Shown here piece by piece: positions 23,260-43,167 of a stretch of 64,000 nt of DNA. Position numbers and translations under genes: made by a program. The notes beneath the pieces were generated by a model. That model saw only the letters and a list, made by a program, of their open reading frames with translations, made no database searches and was not told where the DNA came from. Position 1 is the first letter of the stretch. Each line of letters starts with the position of its first letter. The stretch comes from an uncultured bacterium (GTDB lineage Bacteria > Bacillota_I > Bacilli_A > RF39 > UBA660), in contig CAOJEC010000003.1 in assembly GCA_948433885.1 (NCBI GenBank), positions 5,184 through 69,183 of the forward strand. Direction: 5' to 3'.

Positions 23260-23285
23260 AAAAAAGCCATCACTTACATGATGAC
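23260..23285 (-). terminator. Rho-independent terminator after the large surface-protein gene
   Basis: The minus strand reads gtcatca-tgtaag-tgatggc followed by tttttt. Confidence 0.6.
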
Positions 23286-23298
23286 TAAAATTTTATTA

Positions 23299-25929
23299 TC
23301 AAACTGCTTGATAAGGATCCGTCATAATACCTGTTCCTCTCAAGGTTTTCACGTAATCTGCACTTAAATTTACGACCGGTGCTACGTCACCATTAATATT
23401 GACATCCGTAGCAGCATTGAAATTACCGTTATACATCATAATGAAAACAACAGCACTACCGTAATATAGATGAGAAGGCGAGAGCGACCAATAATTTGAT
23501 CCTCTATATAAATAATAACTTTTATTGTCTGTATAATATTTTCCTGATCCTGCAGCTACTATTTCATCTGCTGTTATTAACCCTACTGGATATGTCAATG
23601 CCCCATTTCCTTTATTCGTGTCATTCACTGTAAATGCGTCGTTCTTTTGTGGACATTTGAAGGTTGGTGTTACTCCTGTATATCCACTGAATGATACTCT
23701 CATTCTTGCATTAGCTCCGTACGCTGTTGCTTGCGTTCCATACCCTAGTCCTGTATCACTACTCCAACCTGTTGATGCCTTTCCTGGTGTGCTTCTATCA
23801 TTACAAAACAATGTATCTGATACTGCATTTCCATAACCTTTATCAGCTATATTTGCCTTGTACCATGCATCTACTACTCCTTTGATTGTCGAGTCTGCTA
23901 TATTAGTTTGTGCTTGTACTTTACTTGTACTTGCTGTCGATCCTGAAGGTCCATACATCCACCCTAGATATTTGTTGTCGTTATAATTTGTGTTGTATGC
24001 AGTACCTCCAATAAAGCTATTAGAACTGCTTGCTCCATTCGCATGGCTTTGTGTTCCATCGTACATTATTCTTAAAGACCCATCTCCATTGACTCGGATG
24101 ATCCTCCAATAGAATCCTGCAAATTTGACATAATTATTTGTCACTGCTCCTCGATAGTAATAACTTGTCCCATAGTCGTCTTCCATCTCGAAGACTCCTT
24201 CTGCTGTCGTTGCTGGATCATCGAAGCCATTCTTCACACCATTTGAAGTAATGTTCAAAGTCGCTAGAGTCTCTTTCGCAGGATCTTTCTTCTTCCAATG
24301 TGCAAACAATGTTTGATTTCCAGTTATAGATACTTTTGTCGAAGATGTCACTTGTGTTCCTCCACTAGTCGCGGTGAACCATCCTAAGAATTCATAACCT
24401 AGGTATGTAGGTGTTGGAAGTGTTCCATATGTAGAATCATATGTTACTGTCTTGCTTCCTGTTGGAGTTGTTCCTCCGTTTGGATTGAATGTTACACTGA
24501 AGGTCTTCGGTGTGTAGTTCGCCGTGACAGTCGCATTGCCATTTCCCATTGTGAAGTTGTTACCATTTACTGTTCCGCTCGTCGAACTCCAATTTGCAAA
24601 GTTGTATCCTGTCTTCACAGGTACATTCAACGTTTTTGTTGAGCCATAATACATACTTTGTGTTGTCTCTCCACCGTATGTTCCTCCATTGGCATTGATT
24701 GTCAATGTATATTGGTTTCTTGCATAATTGTAATCTATCTTATTTTGTACTGGTGGATACACTGTCTCTGCTTTTATAATTAAACTTTGGAATGCTGGAC
24801 TAGTGAACCCTATATATGTCTTAACTTCAGGAGTGACTGTCGTACCATAAGCTGCTTCCCCTTCATCGGTGTCGGCACTTACTAAGGTATATCCTGTTCC
24901 ACTCACGTTCATTTGATGATGATATACGATGTACTTGTAGTCGTTTACTTGCCAATTTGCTGTTAGAGTCGAATTCTTCGCTTCACTCATAGTGAATTTT
25001 GTGCCTTCTAAAGTTCCTCCATTCACTGTCCAACCAGTGAAGGTGTAACCAACTCTCGTCGGATTCGATATTTCTATCGAAGAATTGAAATCTATATTTT
25101 GATTAGTCTCTTCACCATACGTTCCACCATTCGCATCGATCGTAAGTTGATATTGTTTAACTTCCCACCTGGCAACTAACTCAGCATCACTTATTCCCAT
25201 CGTGAACAAGTTGTCTTCTATACTTAAAGATACCCCTTTGATATCCCATCCTACAAATGTGTAACCTGCTCTCGTCGGACTTTCGATAGTCTTTGTCTCT
25301 TCGTTCTTTAGTAAGTATTCTTGTGGTGAAGCGTATTCTCCCCATGTACCTCCATTTGGATCTATTCTAAGTCTGTAATATCTGTATTTCAAAGGTTGTC
25401 CTACGTCGAATGAGGTATTGAATATTGCATCTAAATCATCGGATTGATCAATATCGGGTAAATTGTTCAATGTTATTTCTAAGTTGTAATAATAAGTTTC
25501 TCCTACAGGTACCGATAGTTCACTTGCCATCGTTTGAGTAAGTGGTGTCGAAGACGTTGGAACATTGCTAGATGGTAGTATTTCTTTGTATTCACCATCT
25601 TCTTCGGCACTATAAGTAAGTCTAAAAGTGAGACTATCATTCAAATAGGTATTAATCATATTATTCCAGTCTAAACTGAGAGATGCCTCCGCTGTACCAG
25701 TATTCTCGATCAAGAACTTCTTGGTGACTGTCTCTCCAAAACCTAGTTCAGCGTCTATACCATTGTCATTATCCGCGAACCTTAAAGAAAGAGTTGCCAT
25801 CGACAAAGAAGTATCCTGTTTTTGGGTTGTACCTGTTGCCGTGAAATAAGCATATGATACTGCTCCTATTATAGTGATAATCATCAATGCAATAACTATT
25901 GTATATAACGTTTTGGTTTTCTTATTCAT
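23299..25929 (-). CDS. 876-aa secreted protein with a SipW-type signal peptide, a TasA/camelysin-like domain, four Listeria-Bacteroides (Flg_new-type) repeats and an unassigned C-terminal domain
   Basis: The start is the ATG at 25929 with AGGAGTG upstream. The N-terminus MNKKTKTLYTIVIALMIITIIGAVSYAYFTATGT...SMATLSL parallels TasA/CalY (GGGTFAFFSD...AAGTLDL). The repeats carry the motifs IDPNGGTW...GYTFVGW, IDANGGTY...GYTFTGW, INANGGTY...GYNFANW and FNPNGGT...GYEFLGW. The C-terminal ~330 aa contains FYWRIIRVNGDGS, YWSLSP and VAPVVNL. Confidence 0.8.
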   Translation of the reverse strand: MNKKTKTLYTIVIALMIITIIGAVSYAYFTATGTTQKQDTSLSMATLSLRFADNDNGIDAELGFGETVTKKFLIENTGTAEASLSLDWNNMINTYLNDSLTFRLTYSAEEDGEYKEILPSSNVPTSSTPLTQTMASELSVPVGETYYYNLEITLNNLPDIDQSDDLDAIFNTSFDVGQPLKYRYYRLRIDPNGGTWGEYASPQEYLLKNEETKTIESPTRAGYTFVGWDIKGVSLSIEDNLFTMGISDAELVARWEVKQYQLTIDANGGTYGEETNQNIDFNSSIEISNPTRVGYTFTGWTVNGGTLEGTKFTMSEAKNSTLTANWQVNDYKYIVYHHQMNVSGTGYTLVSADTDEGEAAYGTTVTPEVKTYIGFTSPAFQSLIIKAETVYPPVQNKIDYNYARNQYTLTINANGGTYGGETTQSMYYGSTKTLNVPVKTGYNFANWSSTSGTVNGNNFTMGNGNATVTANYTPKTFSVTFNPNGGTTPTGSKTVTYDSTYGTLPTPTYLGYEFLGWFTATSGGTQVTSSTKVSITGNQTLFAHWKKKDPAKETLATLNITSNGVKNGFDDPATTAEGVFEMEDDYGTSYYYRGAVTNNYVKFAGFYWRIIRVNGDGSLRIMYDGTQSHANGASSSNSFIGGTAYNTNYNDNKYLGWMYGPSGSTASTSKVQAQTNIADSTIKGVVDAWYKANIADKGYGNAVSDTLFCNDRSTPGKASTGWSSDTGLGYGTQATAYGANARMRVSFSGYTGVTPTFKCPQKNDAFTVNDTNKGNGALTYPVGLITADEIVAAGSGKYYTDNKSYYLYRGSNYWSLSPSHLYYGSAVVFIMMYNGNFNAATDVNINGDVAPVVNLSADYVKTLRGTGIMTDPYQAV

Positions 25930-26058
25930 ATTGTCACTCCTAACTGATTTTTGACACATTAAAGACTGGCGCTTCCACCCTTTTTTGCTTTTAATAGACA
26001 TTAGAATATTCTCTTTTTCTACTGAGATAATCTTCGTCTACTATATCTTATACTTGAG

Positions 26059-26089
26059 ATTATACCCCCCCCCCCGAGCTTTTTGTCAA
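26059..26089 (-). promoter_or_regulatory. Consensus sigma-A promoter (TTGACA-19 nt-TATAAT) with a G11 tract in the spacer
   Basis: The minus strand reads cTTGACAaaagctcGGGGGGGGGGGTATAATctc. The -35 is at 26089-26084 and the -10 at 26064-26059. It lies ~130 nt upstream of the ATG at 25929. Confidence 0.75.
26065..26075. repeat. Homopolymeric C11/G11 tract
   Basis: I counted it directly. It is the only long G/C run I saw in this AT-rich window. Confidence 0.95.
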
Positions 26090-26090
26090 G

Positions 26091-26118
26091 AAAAAAAACA
26101 CACTTTTTTCTGTGTTTT
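26091..26118 (-). terminator. Weak AU-rich hairpin terminator after the second ABC gene
   Basis: The minus strand reads aaaacaca-gaaaaaag-tgtgtttt followed by tttt. It overlaps the stop codon. Confidence 0.4.
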
Positions 26119-28547
26119 TAATCTACATCTGTACGAGATAAAATCTCTGCAGGCGTTTTCCTGATCGTTGAATACACCGGAACTAATCCGACGAAAATAT
26201 TGAGCAAATATAATAGAATTATTGCTACGAACGCGACGAATGGATTCATCACGAACATGTTTCCAAAAAACGATATTGATGCAACTTCTTTCATGATAGA
26301 TCCCATCAAGATAACTCCTGGAAGTCCTGCAAACGTCGTTATGACGACGATCTCTCCTAAGAACATCTTATAAATGTCTTTCTTTTTTACACCGATAGCT
26401 CTATAAATACCGACTTCTTTAATTCTAGATAAGAATGATGCTCTTATTATCAAGAATATTTCGATAAAGCTTATAGCTAAAAGCACTCCGGCCAAAATCA
26501 AGGCTTCGATAATACTATTTTCGACTTGATCGATATAGTTCTCTCTAAGATTTTCGTAATTGTCTTTTGCGGCATATCCCTTCTCTTGAAGAGTATTTAT
26601 CATGGCTTTTTTATCGTCCGCTGCAATGAGCATGTGTGGATTTTTTATAATGATGTTGTATTTATAAGTGTTCGCATTGACTAGATATTCATCAAGTCCA
26701 TCATTTGAAGAATAATACCCAACTACTTTGAGTTCTTTACCGTCCAATTTGAAATCGATAGCTTTTCCAATTGGCATTAGATTTTTATTTGCTATATTGA
26801 CTATGACTTCATAATTGTCGATAGGCCAACTGCCTTCTTTTAAAACTATATCGTCCTTGCGATCTTCATATTTTTCTATTCTTACCGCTGACTCTACTAT
26901 TTCATCTTGACTAGTACTTGTACTAAGAAAAGTATTATCGAGGATGTCGATCATAACGTCTTCATAAAAGTAAATACAAGGATCTTTCGTATCACTAATA
27001 CCGACGATTTTAAAAGTCATATCACCTTTAATCATGTCTAAATCGATGAAATCTTCGTAATCGTGTATATCTAACATCTCGATAGTAATATCTTCTTCTT
27101 TAGCGCGATCGATGACGAACTTGTCGATGACGATCTCATTAGAATTCGAAGGATATTTACCATAGACGATATTTTCCTCTTTCAGCAAGTTTATGCTCGC
27201 AAGTGATCCTGTTATTCTTTTTGGAACGTCGGTTAATTGCCATATTTTAGGATTGCTGATAAACATATTTACTATGGAATCGCCAGGAATGACATACTTG
27301 ACACCTGCTAATTTTTCGATACTGAGATAATCTTCTATCTTGTTTGCTTTATTCTCGATAGAAATGTACTCTCTATGAGCAGTCAAGAAATTCTCATCTT
27401 TGATATTGGTCACTCCGAACATACTAGACAGTGCATACGTGATAAATATTGCTGAGAAGAAAAATCCTAACAACAATATCTTTTTCATTTTAGAGTAATT
27501 TAGGACTTTTTTTAGACCCGTTTTCAACATCGTAAACGTATTGTATATAGACGAATATCTAATCTTATCTTCAAATTTCAATTTACTCATGTCGTATTCT
27601 TTGGAATCGAAATCGTCTTGTTTGATCTTCTTATAATGGTCGTCGACAAACTCGATAGCCGAATTTTCGTCGACAACTTCTATTTTGACATTATCGTCCC
27701 CTTTTATATAGACGTTGCCATTTTTGACGACTATATCGAAATGCATTTTTTCTTTTTTATCAGAATAGATCACCACCTCAGAATCACAGCCTGCAGCTTT
27801 TTCGACGTTCTCAAAATCTTTCAAATATATCTTATTATCTATTCTATAATCCAATTCATTCTCGTGATCATTTTTTAAATCGGATACAATTTTTCCATCG
27901 ACTAAATTTATTATTCGAGAAGCATAAAAGTGCGCCAAATCTCTTTCATGAGTTACCAAAATGACGAGTTTTTCTTGAGAAATTTTCTTTATGATGTTCA
28001 TTATTTCGATAGTATTCTTAGAATCCAAATTGCCTGTCGGTTCGTCGGCGATTATTACATCTGGATTTTTGACCAAAGCACGTGCTATACCTACTCTTTG
28101 TCTTTGTCCACCTGACAAATATCCGGCGAGTTTGTCTTTATATCGATACATGTCTACTGCATTCAATATGTAGTCTACACTATATCTTATTTCGCTCATG
28201 TTTTTGATTCCTATCATCTTTAAAGATAACGCGACATTTTCGAAGACAGTCAAATTATCCACCAAATTGTAGTCTTGAAAAATATATCCTATCTTCAATA
28301 CGCGAATTTTATCCTTACGATTATTTCCATTTCTAGCCATCTTTTCTCCATCGATGATGATCTCACCAGAGTTCACTTTATCGAGTCCACCGATAGCATT
28401 CAACAAAGTAGTTTTACCTGAGCCTGAAGGACCTAGCAATGCGACTAATCCGGTCTCGTCCAATTCCAATGAAGTGTTATCGATGACATGAATCTCGTTT
28501 TTCTTATGACGAAAGAAATACTTATTTACATTCTTTAAAGTTATCAT
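26118..28547 (-). CDS. MacB-type fused ABC transporter: N-terminal ATPase plus FtsX-like permease with a large extracytoplasmic domain (809 aa)
   Basis: Walker [10 protein letters not shown], signature LSGGQRQR, Walker [12 protein letters not shown]. One transmembrane segment at about aa 355, a ~320-aa hydrophilic domain, then three C-terminal transmembrane segments with an FtsX-like pattern ([12 protein letters not shown]). Confidence 0.85.
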
Positions 28548-28549
28548 CC

Positions 28550-30760
28550 TTACACTTCCTCTCTATATGTATTCATTACCGAATCTTTGAACAATTTATG
28601 TGCATATCTATTCGAAATGCATAGACTCATCAAAGTCAATACTAAATAAACCATGACATAATCTTTAAATGTGAAGAATTTGACCATATCGCTTATAAAT
28701 TTCCACGATATAACATCGATCCTAGTCAAATACGTTAAGACTAGAAATACTAAGAAGGCAACATTTATGTCGACTAATAGTTCTATATTCAATAAACTGT
28801 TCGATACTTTTTTAGTCGCGCCCAAAATTCTGATCGTAGAAAAGTATACATTGCGAGATTTTAATATTATCTTTATTATGAAATAACTGATGAAAAACAA
28901 AGCAGCTGTCGCGATTATGAATATAACATTTCTAAATATTTTGATTATTCCCATAATCTGCTCATTCATATTCACTAGATTATCTTTCATGAAGTAATAA
29001 TCGTAACCTGTATCTTCTAAAAATTTTAAAGTTTCATCCGCCTTGAGCAAATCGTCCAAAAATAAACTGATTTGATAATCTCCTTTTTCGAACAACCTAG
29101 CATAATCGTTCGTATTTAAGAACACTACATCGGCAACTTCTTCGTATGAATTGGCTTCCACAAAATTTTTGTAGTTTTCCTTATTTATCAAATTTGCAAT
29201 TTTTAGTTCCATTTCTTCTGTATAGTATATATTTGAAGTAGACACATTCAAAAGGGATTCGACACAATCGTAATTTTTACAAGCATTACTCCAAACAGCA
29301 GGAATGAAAACTTCTCCTTCCTTTACCTTGGAACTCGTTCGCACCATGACGGCATCATTAGAAATCATTCCCGGATTTCTATCGTCTATCTCGAAAGAGA
29401 TTTTATTCTTTTTATTCGTAATCATCGTTTTGATATCTTCGAACATTTTATCGGAAATGTAAACCGTGACCCCATCGTCGTCACTATCATTGTAAACGAC
29501 ACCACTTATCTCGACTTTAAAAATATTATCGATGTTCTCTAATTGTAAATTGTAGCTTTTTGTGAAAAATTCATCTAAATAATATTTGATATAGGAATCT
29601 TTATATGATTCGACGACTATTTCATTATTTGCTTTTCCCAATTCCCCTTCATCAACATGATCGAGTTCATTTTTTCTTTTGAAAGAAACCATCGAATAAA
29701 ACGAATAATGCTCATCATATATTGTTCCATTTGCATCCAACATCAAATCGTCTTTTTCAATAAAATCTACATTTTCTACATTTCTTAATTTTTCGATTTC
29801 CTCTTCAGTAAATGCTGTTTTGTCTTTTTTATTGACTACAACGCGTTCGGGATCGTTTACGTAGAATAGAGAGTTGTACCCACCCAATGAATTCGAAAAA
29901 TCTTGCTTTTGGATATTGGAATACTCTGAGAAAACCAATAAAGTCAAAAAGAAATATACCGCGAACAAAAGAGCAAATTTGGTCTTTATATTGAACGCAT
30001 TTCTGAATCCCAATTTGAGTTTATTTTTAAAGATCAAATCGTCATACGAGACGAGCTCAGCATCACATTTTTCATAAGATTTCAACTTTTTGTCTTCGAT
30101 AATCTTACCATCGCTCATGGAAATCTTTCTCGTCGCATATTCTTCGACTTGATCGTAGTTATGAGTGACTATTACTACCAATTTTTTCTTAGATATTTCA
30201 CTTAGAAGTTTCAATATACTTTTTGCACTTTTCACGTCCAAATTACCGGTTGGTTCATCTGCGACGATGATAGGTGTATCTTTGGCCAATGCTCGCGCAA
30301 TCGCCACGCGTTGTTTTTGCCCTCCCGACAACTTCGATGCCTTGGTATTTTTGTACTTCTTCAAACCGACGACATCTATTATCTCGTCGACCTTTTTCTT
30401 TATTGCGCGTTCATCACAACCGTTTAAAAGAAGCACTAATTCGACGTTTTGTCTAACCGTATAACTATTTACTAAATTGAAGTGTTGGAATATGTTTCCT
30501 ATGTAAGTTCTACGATAATTTTCATAATCTATCTCCGTATAATGACTCGTTTCCTCGCCATCTATGTACATTTCTCCTTCTTCATAAGAATCTAGTCCTG
30601 AAATGACATTCAACAAAGTCGATTTACCACTTCCAGATTCTCCTGTGATGACGACAAACTCGCCCATTTCTAAATCCAAATTTATTCTACTAAATCCTGT
30701 AGAAATAGATTTCTTATTGCGATAAAACTTCGAAACATTCTTAAGTGAAATTATACTCAT
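28550..30760 (-). CDS. MacB-type fused ABC transporter paralogue (736 aa)
   Basis: Walker A GESGSGKST, signature LSGGQKQR, Walker [12 protein letters not shown]. Its topology matches the downstream paralogue. Its start codon abuts the ttcA stop. Confidence 0.85.
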   Translation of the reverse strand: MSIISLKNVSKFYRNKKSISTGFSRINLDLEMGEFVVITGESGSGKSTLLNVISGLDSYEEGEMYIDGEETSHYTEIDYENYRRTYIGNIFQHFNLVNSYTVRQNVELVLLLNGCDERAIKKKVDEIIDVVGLKKYKNTKASKLSGGQKQRVAIARALAKDTPIIVADEPTGNLDVKSAKSILKLLSEISKKKLVVIVTHNYDQVEEYATRKISMSDGKIIEDKKLKSYEKCDAELVSYDDLIFKNKLKLGFRNAFNIKTKFALLFAVYFFLTLLVFSEYSNIQKQDFSNSLGGYNSLFYVNDPERVVVNKKDKTAFTEEEIEKLRNVENVDFIEKDDLMLDANGTIYDEHYSFYSMVSFKRKNELDHVDEGELGKANNEIVVESYKDSYIKYYLDEFFTKSYNLQLENIDNIFKVEISGVVYNDSDDDGVTVYISDKMFEDIKTMITNKKNKISFEIDDRNPGMISNDAVMVRTSSKVKEGEVFIPAVWSNACKNYDCVESLLNVSTSNIYYTEEMELKIANLINKENYKNFVEANSYEEVADVVFLNTNDYARLFEKGDYQISLFLDDLLKADETLKFLEDTGYDYYFMKDNLVNMNEQIMGIIKIFRNVIFIIATAALFFISYFIIKIILKSRNVYFSTIRILGATKKVSNSLLNIELLVDINVAFLVFLVLTYLTRIDVISWKFISDMVKFFTFKDYVMVYLVLTLMSLCISNRYAHKLFKDSVMNTYREEV

Positions 30761-41850: not shown

Positions 41851-43032
41851 CTATTTTAAGTTGACTTTCTTGAAAACTTTTTTACCTTTTTGAACGACCA
41901 CCGGACTACCCTCGATCGCAGTTTTCACGTCGGTTACCTTTTCACCATCGACACTGATGCCACCTTGTTCGACCAATCTTCTCGCTTCAGATTTTGAAGG
42001 AGCAATCGCTACATCGACGAGTAAATCCAAAATGTTCGCACCTCTACTCAAAGTAGATTCGACTTCGGGCATGTTCGTAGAATCGCCGGCAAATATTTCC
42101 TCACTCATCTTTTTGGCATTATCTGCTTCCTCGACTCCATGAACGAATTTTGTAACCTCGTAAGCCAATGTCTTATGTGCTTCGCGAAGTTCGGGATGTT
42201 CTTTGTGACTTGCTTCCAAAGCTTCTATTTCTTCTCGTGACAAGAATGTAAAATGTTTCAAATAATCGATGACTTTCTCATCTTCAGAATTTATGAAAAA
42301 TTGATAAAATTCGTATGGACTAGTTTGTTCTTTATCCAACCAAATGGCCTTACCTTCGCTCTTTCCGAACTTAGTTCCATCCTTTTTGGTAACCAAAGGC
42401 ATAGTAAAAGCATACGCTTCTTTTCCAAGTTTCTTTCTGATGAGGTCTACTCCCGCGGTGATATTTCCCCATTGATCTTGACCTGCTACTTGCATCGTAC
42501 AATTTTTTTGTTCGTACAAAACACAAAAATCCATAGCTTGCATGATTTGATAAGAAAATTCAGTATAAGTTATACCTTCGTCCAATCTTCTTTTGACGAT
42601 ATCTTTATTTATCATATAATTGACATTGAAGTATTTACCATAATCTCTAAGAAAAGTGATGAAATCTACATCTTTACTCCATTCGTAATTGTTAACAAAT
42701 TCGATATTATCAAAAATTTTCTCGAATTGTGCAGTCAATTTTTTTACATTGTTATTGACCTTTTCGTAAGATATGATTTCTCTTTCTTTAGAGGGCCTTG
42801 GATCTCCTATCAAACCCGTAGCTCCTCCTACCAAGACGATCGGATGATGCCCATGGTCGGAAAGTCTTTTACAAATCAAAAAACTCGATAAGTGTCCTAC
42901 GTGCAAAGAGTCACCAGTCGGATCAGTTCCAATATAGAAAGTGACCTTCTCTTCATCTAACAATCTTTTAATCTCAGGACTAGTCGAGTCTTTGATCAAT
43001 CCACGCCATTCTAGCTCTTCGTATAATGTCAT
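41851..43032 (-). CDS. tyrS: Tyrosine--tRNA ligase
   Basis: HVGHL (HIGH), KFGKS (KMSKS), and a C-terminal S4 domain. Confidence 0.95.
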   Translation of the reverse strand: MTLYEELEWRGLIKDSTSPEIKRLLDEEKVTFYIGTDPTGDSLHVGHLSSFLICKRLSDHGHHPIVLVGGATGLIGDPRPSKEREIISYEKVNNNVKKLTAQFEKIFDNIEFVNNYEWSKDVDFITFLRDYGKYFNVNYMINKDIVKRRLDEGITYTEFSYQIMQAMDFCVLYEQKNCTMQVAGQDQWGNITAGVDLIRKKLGKEAYAFTMPLVTKKDGTKFGKSEGKAIWLDKEQTSPYEFYQFFINSEDEKVIDYLKHFTFLSREEIEALEASHKEHPELREAHKTLAYEVTKFVHGVEEADNAKKMSEEIFAGDSTNMPEVESTLSRGANILDLLVDVAIAPSKSEARRLVEQGGISVDGEKVTDVKTAIEGSPVVVQKGKKVFKKVNLK

Positions 43033-43167
43033 AATTATCCTCTTCTTTCAGTTATCTCAATTATATTCTATTTGATTATCTTTGTCAAAAACTTCTCTTC
43101 TTTCAATTTTTGATAACAAAATTTACCGGCGTACCATAGACTATAGTAGGAGTTAGGAGGTTATATT

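Follow-up and report, generated by a model that had tools for sequence, protein, structure and literature searches.

A poly-G tract of variable length in the promoter spacer of a predicted surface-protein gene: a candidate phase-variation switch in an uncultured gut Bacilli lineage

Poly-G tracts between the -35 and -10 hexamers of a promoter, with an optimal spacing of 17 nucleotides (nt), are experimentally established for tp0126 of Treponema pallidum and porA of Neisseria meningitidis (PMC7864442). In porA, a surface-protein gene, the length of the G homopolymer alters the spacing of the hexamers and thereby transcription, and in T. pallidum poly-G tracts of 7-11 nt are found in the promoters of the surface-protein genes tp0126 and tpr (E, G, J and L), with tract lengths that vary within and between isolates (PMC7864442). 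Here we describe a locus of comparable build in a stretch of 64,000 nt from an uncultured bacterium (contig CAOJEC010000003.1), referred to as the window, to which all window coordinates refer. A tract of 11 G's separates the two hexamers of a promoter upstream of a gene for an 876-amino-acid (aa) protein predicted to be secreted or located at the surface. Judging from the sequence and its relatives, the tract is probably a phase-variation switch that acts by slipped-strand mispairing in the promoter spacer.

The new locus shares with porA and tp0126 the position of the tract between the hexamers, and it differs in other respects. The porA gene encodes an outer-membrane porin of a Gram-negative pathogen, whereas the gene described here belongs to an uncultured low-GC gut Firmicute and encodes a secreted repeat protein; moreover, both hexamers are perfect consensus here and the effect on expression is a prediction. 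The genome of the spirochaete pathogen T. pallidum contains many such tracts, whereas here one tract is present in the DNA examined and its variation is known between contigs.

In the vlp genes of Mycoplasma hyorhinis, which encode variable surface proteins, a poly-A tract occupies the promoter spacer. As in the window, a conserved promoter and leader (together with a signal-peptide block in vlp) stand ahead of divergent coding bodies. Besides the different base of the tract, the vlp genes are clustered lipoprotein genes of a wall-less parasite, whereas we find a single locus between housekeeping genes in a carrier of spore genes. Among the known examples the mycoplasmas are probably the nearest phylogenetic neighbours, because relatives of the window are labelled as Bacilli, Tenericutes or Mycoplasmatota metagenome-assembled genomes (MAGs). 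Repeat lengths in promoters also switch the fimbrial or adhesin genes fim of Bordetella pertussis (poly-C) and hifA/B of Haemophilus influenzae ((TA)n). Unlike here, the fim tract separates the -10 box from an activator-binding site, and the hif repeat is a dinucleotide repeat common to divergent promoters. Since other phyla already provide well-established cases of the mechanism, the locus adds a new host and a new target and not a new principle.

The promoter module is composed of the following parts:
26089-26059, minus strand: promoter module TTGACA-AAAAGCTC-G11-TATAAT with a spacer of 19 nt
26084..26089, minus strand: -35 hexamer TTGACA, perfect sigma-A/sigma-70 consensus and first conserved block of the module
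26076..26083, minus strand: non-repetitive left part of the spacer, AAAAGCTC, 8 nt
26065..26075, minus strand: poly-G tract G11 (C11 on the plus strand); it is proposed as the hypermutable element and would set the -35/-10 spacing
26059..26064, minus strand: -10 hexamer TATAAT, perfect consensus

The initial annotation had reported exact TTGACA and TATAAT hexamers around a 19-nt spacer with G11, and reading the minus strand from 26089 to 26059 confirms it. It had also seen no comparable G/C run in the window; indeed the C11 at 26065-26075 is the sole run of G or C of at least 7 nt in these 64 kb of 36% GC, in which about 0.002 G/C runs of at least 11 nt are expected. The tract is at the same time the longest homopolymer of any base in the window, runs of A and T reaching at most 8 nt. 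It remains the sole G/C run of at least 7 nt in about 185 kb of contigs of the same species, and 1.1 Mb of related loci and genomes contain two such runs in all. Perfect TTGACA-N15-20-TATAAT pairs are found twice in the window, where 0.12 are expected from shuffled sequences, and a consensus scan with 16-18-nt spacers detected no further minus-strand promoter-like site between the stop codon of the upstream ABC gene and the start codon of the surface-protein gene.

The other perfect pair (43060-43088, minus strand) has a 17-nt spacer and is located 28 nt upstream of a 393-aa open reading frame (ORF; 41851-43032). Furthermore, an unrelated metagenome contig met by chance (JAEEGL012894216.1, reverse strand) carries TTGACA-AAAGGCTTTTC-G6-TATAAT, with a spacer of 17 nt, ahead of an unrelated gene, which shows that G runs directly next to a -10 box are found elsewhere too. 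A plus-strand ORF across the C tract (25985-26164) was considered as a gene and rejected: it overlaps the 3' end of the ABC gene, and its ABC-proximal half has no counterpart in the lineage in which other DNA precedes the promoter (lineage C, below).

Orthologous loci were retrieved by means of the conserved 809-aa ABC gene as anchor, taking contigs that match the ABC protein of the window or three variants of it at 90% identity or more. These contigs are Illumina-based metagenome assemblies (Logan, SPAdes), several of them of low coverage (cov 3-9 in the contig names). They fall into three lineages of the same species, whose ABC regions are 94-96.5% identical to one another. Every intact copy has the -35 box, a short unique spacer part, the G tract, the -10 box and the leader, as follows (left spacer part, tract, spacer length):
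Lineage A, window and L002: AAAAGCTC, G11, 19 nt
Lineage B, L080: ACAAGTTC, G11, 19 nt
Lineage B, L081: ACAAGTTC, G9, 17 nt
Lineage B, L084: ACAAGTTC, G8, 16 nt
Lineage B, L083: ACAAGTTC, G6TGG, 17 nt
Lineage B', L082: AACGAGTTC (9 nt), G11, 20 nt
Lineage C, L133, L134, L136 and L139: AACGAGTTC (9 nt), G10, 19 nt

The -35 hexamer is unchanged in 13 contigs and the -10 hexamer in every intact copy; in two contigs, L001 and L003, foreign DNA stands in place of the latter. A homopolymer of about 7 nt or more between recognisable -35 and -10 hexamers, as in TTGACA-N8-G11-TATAAT, is present in 13 copies across contigs. The tract takes the forms G8, G9, G10, G11 and the interrupted G6TGG, and the spacers of 16-20 nt (16, 17, 17, 19 and 20 nt) straddle the optimal 17 +/- 1 nt. 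Within lineages, contigs also agree with each other, as G10 is found in four contigs from four samples and G11 in both the window and L002.

The contigs of lineage B stem from four separate sequencing runs. L080 and L081 align over 6654 bp with 0 mismatches and 1 gap, and L080 and L084 over 3894 bp with 0 mismatches and 1 gap, the gap being the tract in both cases; L081 and L083 differ over 4858 bp by 1 mismatch, a G-to-T change inside the tract. At the level of assemblies, not reads, the tract is therefore the sole difference over 3.9-6.7 kb, and it appears to mutate faster than the several kb around it. The G6TGG form of L083 keeps the 17-nt spacer, breaks the repeat and creates the extended -10 sequence TGgTATAAT; from its sequence it looks like a stabilised (locked) ON allele. 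The comparison of the orthologous intergenic region that the initial annotation had proposed as a check thus finds a polymorphic tract length within a module conserved in three lineages, with lengths of 8-11, and lends support to its phase-variation candidate.

The contigs L080-L084, although from independent samples, all end at the same base, 36 nt into the coding sequence in the signal-peptide region. Likewise L135, L137 and L138 of lineage C end at a common base 45 nt upstream of the tract, just before the promoter module. Such shared ends suggest that the samples contain repeats of these sequences, as paralogues with common 5' ends, or polymorphic versions of them. A metagenome contig collection scanned with the left flank TGTGTTTTTTTTCTTGACAA yielded 47 matches by chance and 0 at the locus, so the organism appears to be missing from that collection.

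The module is also conserved where its surroundings are not. In lineage C a different segment of about 230 nt with two hairpins lies between the ABC stop codon and the -35 box. Homology between the window and lineage C sets in again exactly at the -35 hexamer; from there to the start codon, with tract, -10 box and leader included, the two are about 79% identical. The coding sequence that follows this shared promoter and leader in lineage C is another allele:
L133:8430-10247, equivalent to window 26117-23182: lineage C slot with a 437-aa allele

The signal sequence and N-terminal region of this allele are different, whereas its C-terminal domain is that of the protein of the window, with 84% nucleotide identity from window 24229 to past the stop codon. 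The tract has therefore been retained in three lineages over evolutionary time despite the base composition. Flanks and cargo change while a run of G8-11 persists in an AT-rich genome, which points to selection acting on the tract itself.

In the mechanism we propose, the poly-G tract would be a hypermutable simple-sequence repeat in the spacer of a consensus sigma-A-type promoter, to which slipped-strand mispairing at replication would add or remove G's. The distance from TTGACA to TATAAT would thereby shift, over 16-20 nt in the copies seen, along with the rotational phasing of the hexamers. Transcription of the surface-protein gene would go up at about 17 nt (G9 in the lineage of the window) and down at 19-20 nt, so that the window with G11 and 19 nt is predicted to be weak or OFF. 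The outcome would be a contingency locus, with surface-protein expression that is heritable, reversible and mixed within the population. We infer the use of the promoter, the dependence of expression on length and reversible switching in a clone.

The gene under this control and the hairpin behind it are located as follows:
23299..25929, minus strand: surface-protein gene, 876 aa, predicted secreted or surface
23265..23286, minus strand: terminator-like hairpin after the surface-protein gene and before the D-Ala-D-Ala carboxypeptidase gene

The protein has an N-terminal signal anchor ending in SYAYFTA, followed by a beta-sandwich domain of about 200 aa and six InlB-type B repeats (Flg_new and Flg_new_2; Pfam and NCBIfam). 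The C-terminal domain of about 330 aa matches no family; it is conserved, being common to the 437-aa allele and to paralogues of about 510 aa, and its structure model (predicted local distance difference test score, pLDDT, of 41) is too low for use. Homologues are numerous in gut MAGs and include forms of about 510 aa without repeats. Look-ups by exact protein found no record of the 876-aa or the 900-aa product, nor of P0001, P0002 or P0043.

The initial annotation had called this a secreted TasA-like/repeat protein. The repeats stand, as the six InlB-type B repeats, and secretion stands as a prediction, while the TasA-like identity is weakly supported and we treat it as a lead, not a finding, because the family match is below threshold and the fold matches are weak and generic. 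The match to camelysin (Peptidase_M73, Pfam: PF12389) at residues 6-81 has an E-value of 7e-4 and 19.9 bits, below the gathering cut-off of 22.5, and some homologues carry a precomputed PF12389 match. The AlphaFold2 model of residues 1-215 is a confidently predicted beta-sandwich with a pLDDT of 79. Its matches in the PDB have template modelling (TM) scores of about 0.3-0.35, with the TasA fibre 8aur_A ranked 5th (TM 0.35) and the TasA-like pilus 7ueg 11th; none reaches an E-value of 0.001 or less and many are generic beta-sandwiches. A profile search of PDB sequences yielded nothing meaningful.

As a predicted secreted repeat protein, the product is typical cargo and fits the pattern of such switches. 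Its signal anchor, B repeats and allelic diversity, together with a nonsense allele, are consistent with a product that is surface-exposed and under fluctuating selection, surface localisation being predicted. The nonsense allele is a TCA-to-TGA change at window position 23819 in one metagenome assembly (L068:639 region, sample ERZ14867581), which splits the gene into ORFs of 212 aa and 170 aa. The promoter contig of the same sample, L002, is also in the G11 (19-nt) state.

Between promoter and gene lies a conserved leader:
25930..26058, minus strand: untranslated leader, conserved, about 130 nt
near 26053-26051, minus strand: predicted transcription start
about 26043-25992, minus strand: 5' stem-loop of the leader
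25980-25955, minus strand: conserved leader block GGGTGGAAGCGCCAGTCTTTAATGTG
25941-25937, minus strand: ribosome-binding site AGGAG, 7 nt upstream of the start codon at 25929

The leader is a single copy in the window. Alleles that differ at the 5' end of their coding sequence have leaders of about 79% identity. Compared with shuffled sequence, the leader has the better fold (z = -3.1); its consensus hairpin shows few compensatory changes, and the 5' stem-loop is mostly maintained. An Rfam search found no match in the leader, for which one guess is a role in mRNA stabilisation. Across the whole 64 kb no Rfam family reaches its gathering score, and no tRNA, rRNA or riboswitch was found. The 16-nt sequence TACTGAGATAATCTTC (plus strand) forms an exact direct repeat, with one copy in the leader (26020-26035) and one inside the 809-aa ABC gene (27320-27335); the repeat is probably due to chance because lineage B does not conserve the copy in the leader.

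The ATG at 25929, which the initial annotation had placed about 130 nt downstream of the promoter as the start of the 876-aa ORF, is supported as well. Gene callers start a longer product (P0001, 900 aa) at an in-frame ATG within the leader (25999-26001, minus strand). We rejected this start because the window and L133 do not have the same reading frame across the conserved leader block and because the ribosome-binding site at 26001 is poor; the 900-aa extension is probably an annotation artefact.

Upstream of the module, the following features are found:
26094..26119, minus strand: terminator-like AT-rich hairpin with T run, closing the ABC operon just upstream of the -35 box
26118..30760, minus strand: two fused ABC ATPase/FtsX-type permease genes of 736 and 809 aa, context outside the switch

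Several observations weigh against a switch. Lineage C shows no variation, with G10 in four of four samples. The spacer is 19-20 nt in 9 of the 13 copies, and this modal state could mean a fixed weak promoter, or a 19-nt spacer that works with an extra factor. All tract lengths were read from short-read metagenome assemblies, in which homopolymers are error-prone. Read-through from the ABC operon across the weak AT-rich hairpin may also contribute to transcription of the gene. Finally, close homologues of the gene at other loci (L078 and L079, 79-85% identical) use ordinary promoters without a tract:
L078:214-580 and L079:3654-4000: homologue promoters TTGACA/TTGACT with 17-18 nt and an extended -10 TGnTATAyT, next to a small divergent helix-turn-helix (HTH) gene

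In L078 the homologue is followed by genes for a dockerin-like and a cadherin-like protein.

A second, independent case comes from a more distant relative. The contig L013, from a Bacilli MAG of 26% GC from goat rectum, has TTGACT-TC-G9-AATA-TATACT with a 15-nt spacer at 130-210, and this G9 is one of the only two G/C runs of at least 7 nt in the 1.1 Mb of related loci. The tract is located about 40 nt upstream of a gene for a 392-aa signal-peptide protein, which itself lies directly upstream of the orthologous ABC pair. As a further point on the negative side, the protein resembles the surface-protein family weakly (pairwise BLASTP E-value 7e-6; hhalign probability 12%), and because its resemblance to the 437-aa allele is so weak the case is supportive and not conclusive.

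Some of these points would fit a static element, in which the G-rich spacer serves as a DNA structure or as a binding site, for instance of an activator making up for the 19-nt spacing, or in which the gene is co-transcribed with the ABC genes and length drift is neutral. We consider this unlikely. A binding site would be expected to be constant in length and sequence, whereas the tract varies while the hexamers stay perfect, and neutral drift would not keep a G run of 8-11 nt in an AT-rich genome across diverged lineages. The preference for 19-20 nt over 17 nt agrees with a static element, and the conserved, structured leader hints at additional regulation. The upstream hairpin bears on co-transcription. 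The initial annotation had described a terminator-like hairpin closing the ABC genes, and it is present at 26119-26094, directly after the ABC stop codon, with 9 bp and about -12 kcal/mol including flanks. It is weak and AT-rich, and the terminator scanner does not call it because it has too few G-C pairs, which leaves room for transcripts from the ABC genes. In lineage C, however, the additional 230 nt or so and two further hairpins ahead of the module argue for an autonomous promoter.

The place of the gene next to the ABC pair is variable. Among 64 related genomes with 40-59% identity in the ABC protein, labelled as uncultured Bacilli, Tenericutes, Mycoplasmatota or Clostridia MAGs and mostly from guts, the ABC pair is conserved and no homologue of the surface-protein gene is found within 10 kb of it. 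In L015 the genes abc1-abc2-dac-spmA-spmB are directly adjacent and the slot is empty. A conserved linkage of the surface-protein gene to the ABC pair is ruled out by its absence from this position in the relatives; since they keep the ABC pair without it, the gene occupies a variable slot between housekeeping genes. The host carries the sporulation genes spmA/B and CotZ.

In two samples the slot has been altered further. The ABC regions of L001 and L003 are 100% identical to the window and the identity extends through TTGACA-AAAAGCTC-G9, after which unrelated DNA follows:
L001:5119-8076 and L003:4522-4944: foreign DNA, with its junction at window 26065/26064, the 3' end of the tract

The foreign DNA encodes a split C5 cytosine DNA methylase, two HTH regulators and a 162-aa protein without assigned function. 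Compared with phages by blastn, the methylase core alone is matched, at about 70% identity, and a viral contig collection scanned for the end of the L001 insertion gave 0 matches. These samples retain the 3' end of the surface-protein gene, located upstream of dac.

These junctions would be expected if the tract were mainly a recombination or insertion hotspot that marks a variable gene slot after the ABC operon and not a tuner of spacing, and the different alleles of the abc2-dac slot by lineage, as well as the empty slot of L015, point the same way. The alleles, however, remain homologous across the -10 box and all of the leader as far as the start codon, so the boundaries of exchange lie elsewhere. 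Moreover, a single insertion type was seen and one junction recovered, and the insertion would just inactivate the promoter, which is compatible with a switch as a third route to OFF. The foreign DNA is besides absent from the window and no inverted repeats surround the promoter. Taken as the main role of the tract, a hotspot is improbable.

That the differences in length are sequencing or assembly errors at a real tract, with a promoter that is fixed, weak or regulator-dependent and does not switch, is very unlikely: the Illumina-based assemblies, several at low coverage, and the constant G10 of four lineage C samples would allow for it, but the differences amount to up to 3 nt (G8 against G11) and include the substitution variant G6TGG with its exact 17-nt spacer and extended -10, independent samples and assemblers agree within lineages, and errors leave unexplained both the conservation of G8-11 in a 36%-GC genome amid diverging flanks and the G9 in a similar position in the 26%-GC relative L013.

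An invertible promoter is ruled out, as no inverted repeats flank the promoter apart from the terminator hairpin and the DNA at the L001 junction has no match anywhere in the 64-kb window, which together indicate insertion or replacement and not inversion.

With slippage in the promoter spacer as the preferred explanation, the locus could, more tentatively, be one visible part of a surface-variation system built in layers, in an uncultured gut lineage of Bacilli that carries spore genes and is related to Mollicutes; we regard this as possible and rather doubtful. The first layer may be a portable module, made of the consensus promoter with its poly-G spacer and the structured leader, that switches by slippage. 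A second layer may consist of alternative coding alleles or paralogues with common 5' and 3' ends, which recombination places behind the module, and as a third layer the edge of the tract may itself be a target for the insertion of foreign DNA. The G tract beside the same ABC pair in the distant relative L013 would then suggest that the arrangement is ancient and has a functional tie to the transporter. If true, the vlp and vsa systems of mycoplasmas would have a counterpart in a walled Firmicute.

Most of the repeat-mediated phase variation charted so far comes from pathogens such as Neisseria, Haemophilus, Campylobacter, Helicobacter, Treponema and Mycoplasma. According to a recent review, it looks restricted to pathogens, possibly through sampling or database bias (PMC11868660). 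The locus described here is a concrete and testable counter-example in an uncultured gut commensal Firmicute. As a caution, finding this gene in a MAG does not imply that it is expressed. Public metagenomes already hold ON-like (16-17 nt), OFF-like (19-20 nt) and locked-looking (G6TGG) alleles, and contingency loci of this kind can be revealed by strain-resolved metagenome assemblies. For the organism itself, the locus offers a handle on which surface protein it varies in its host.

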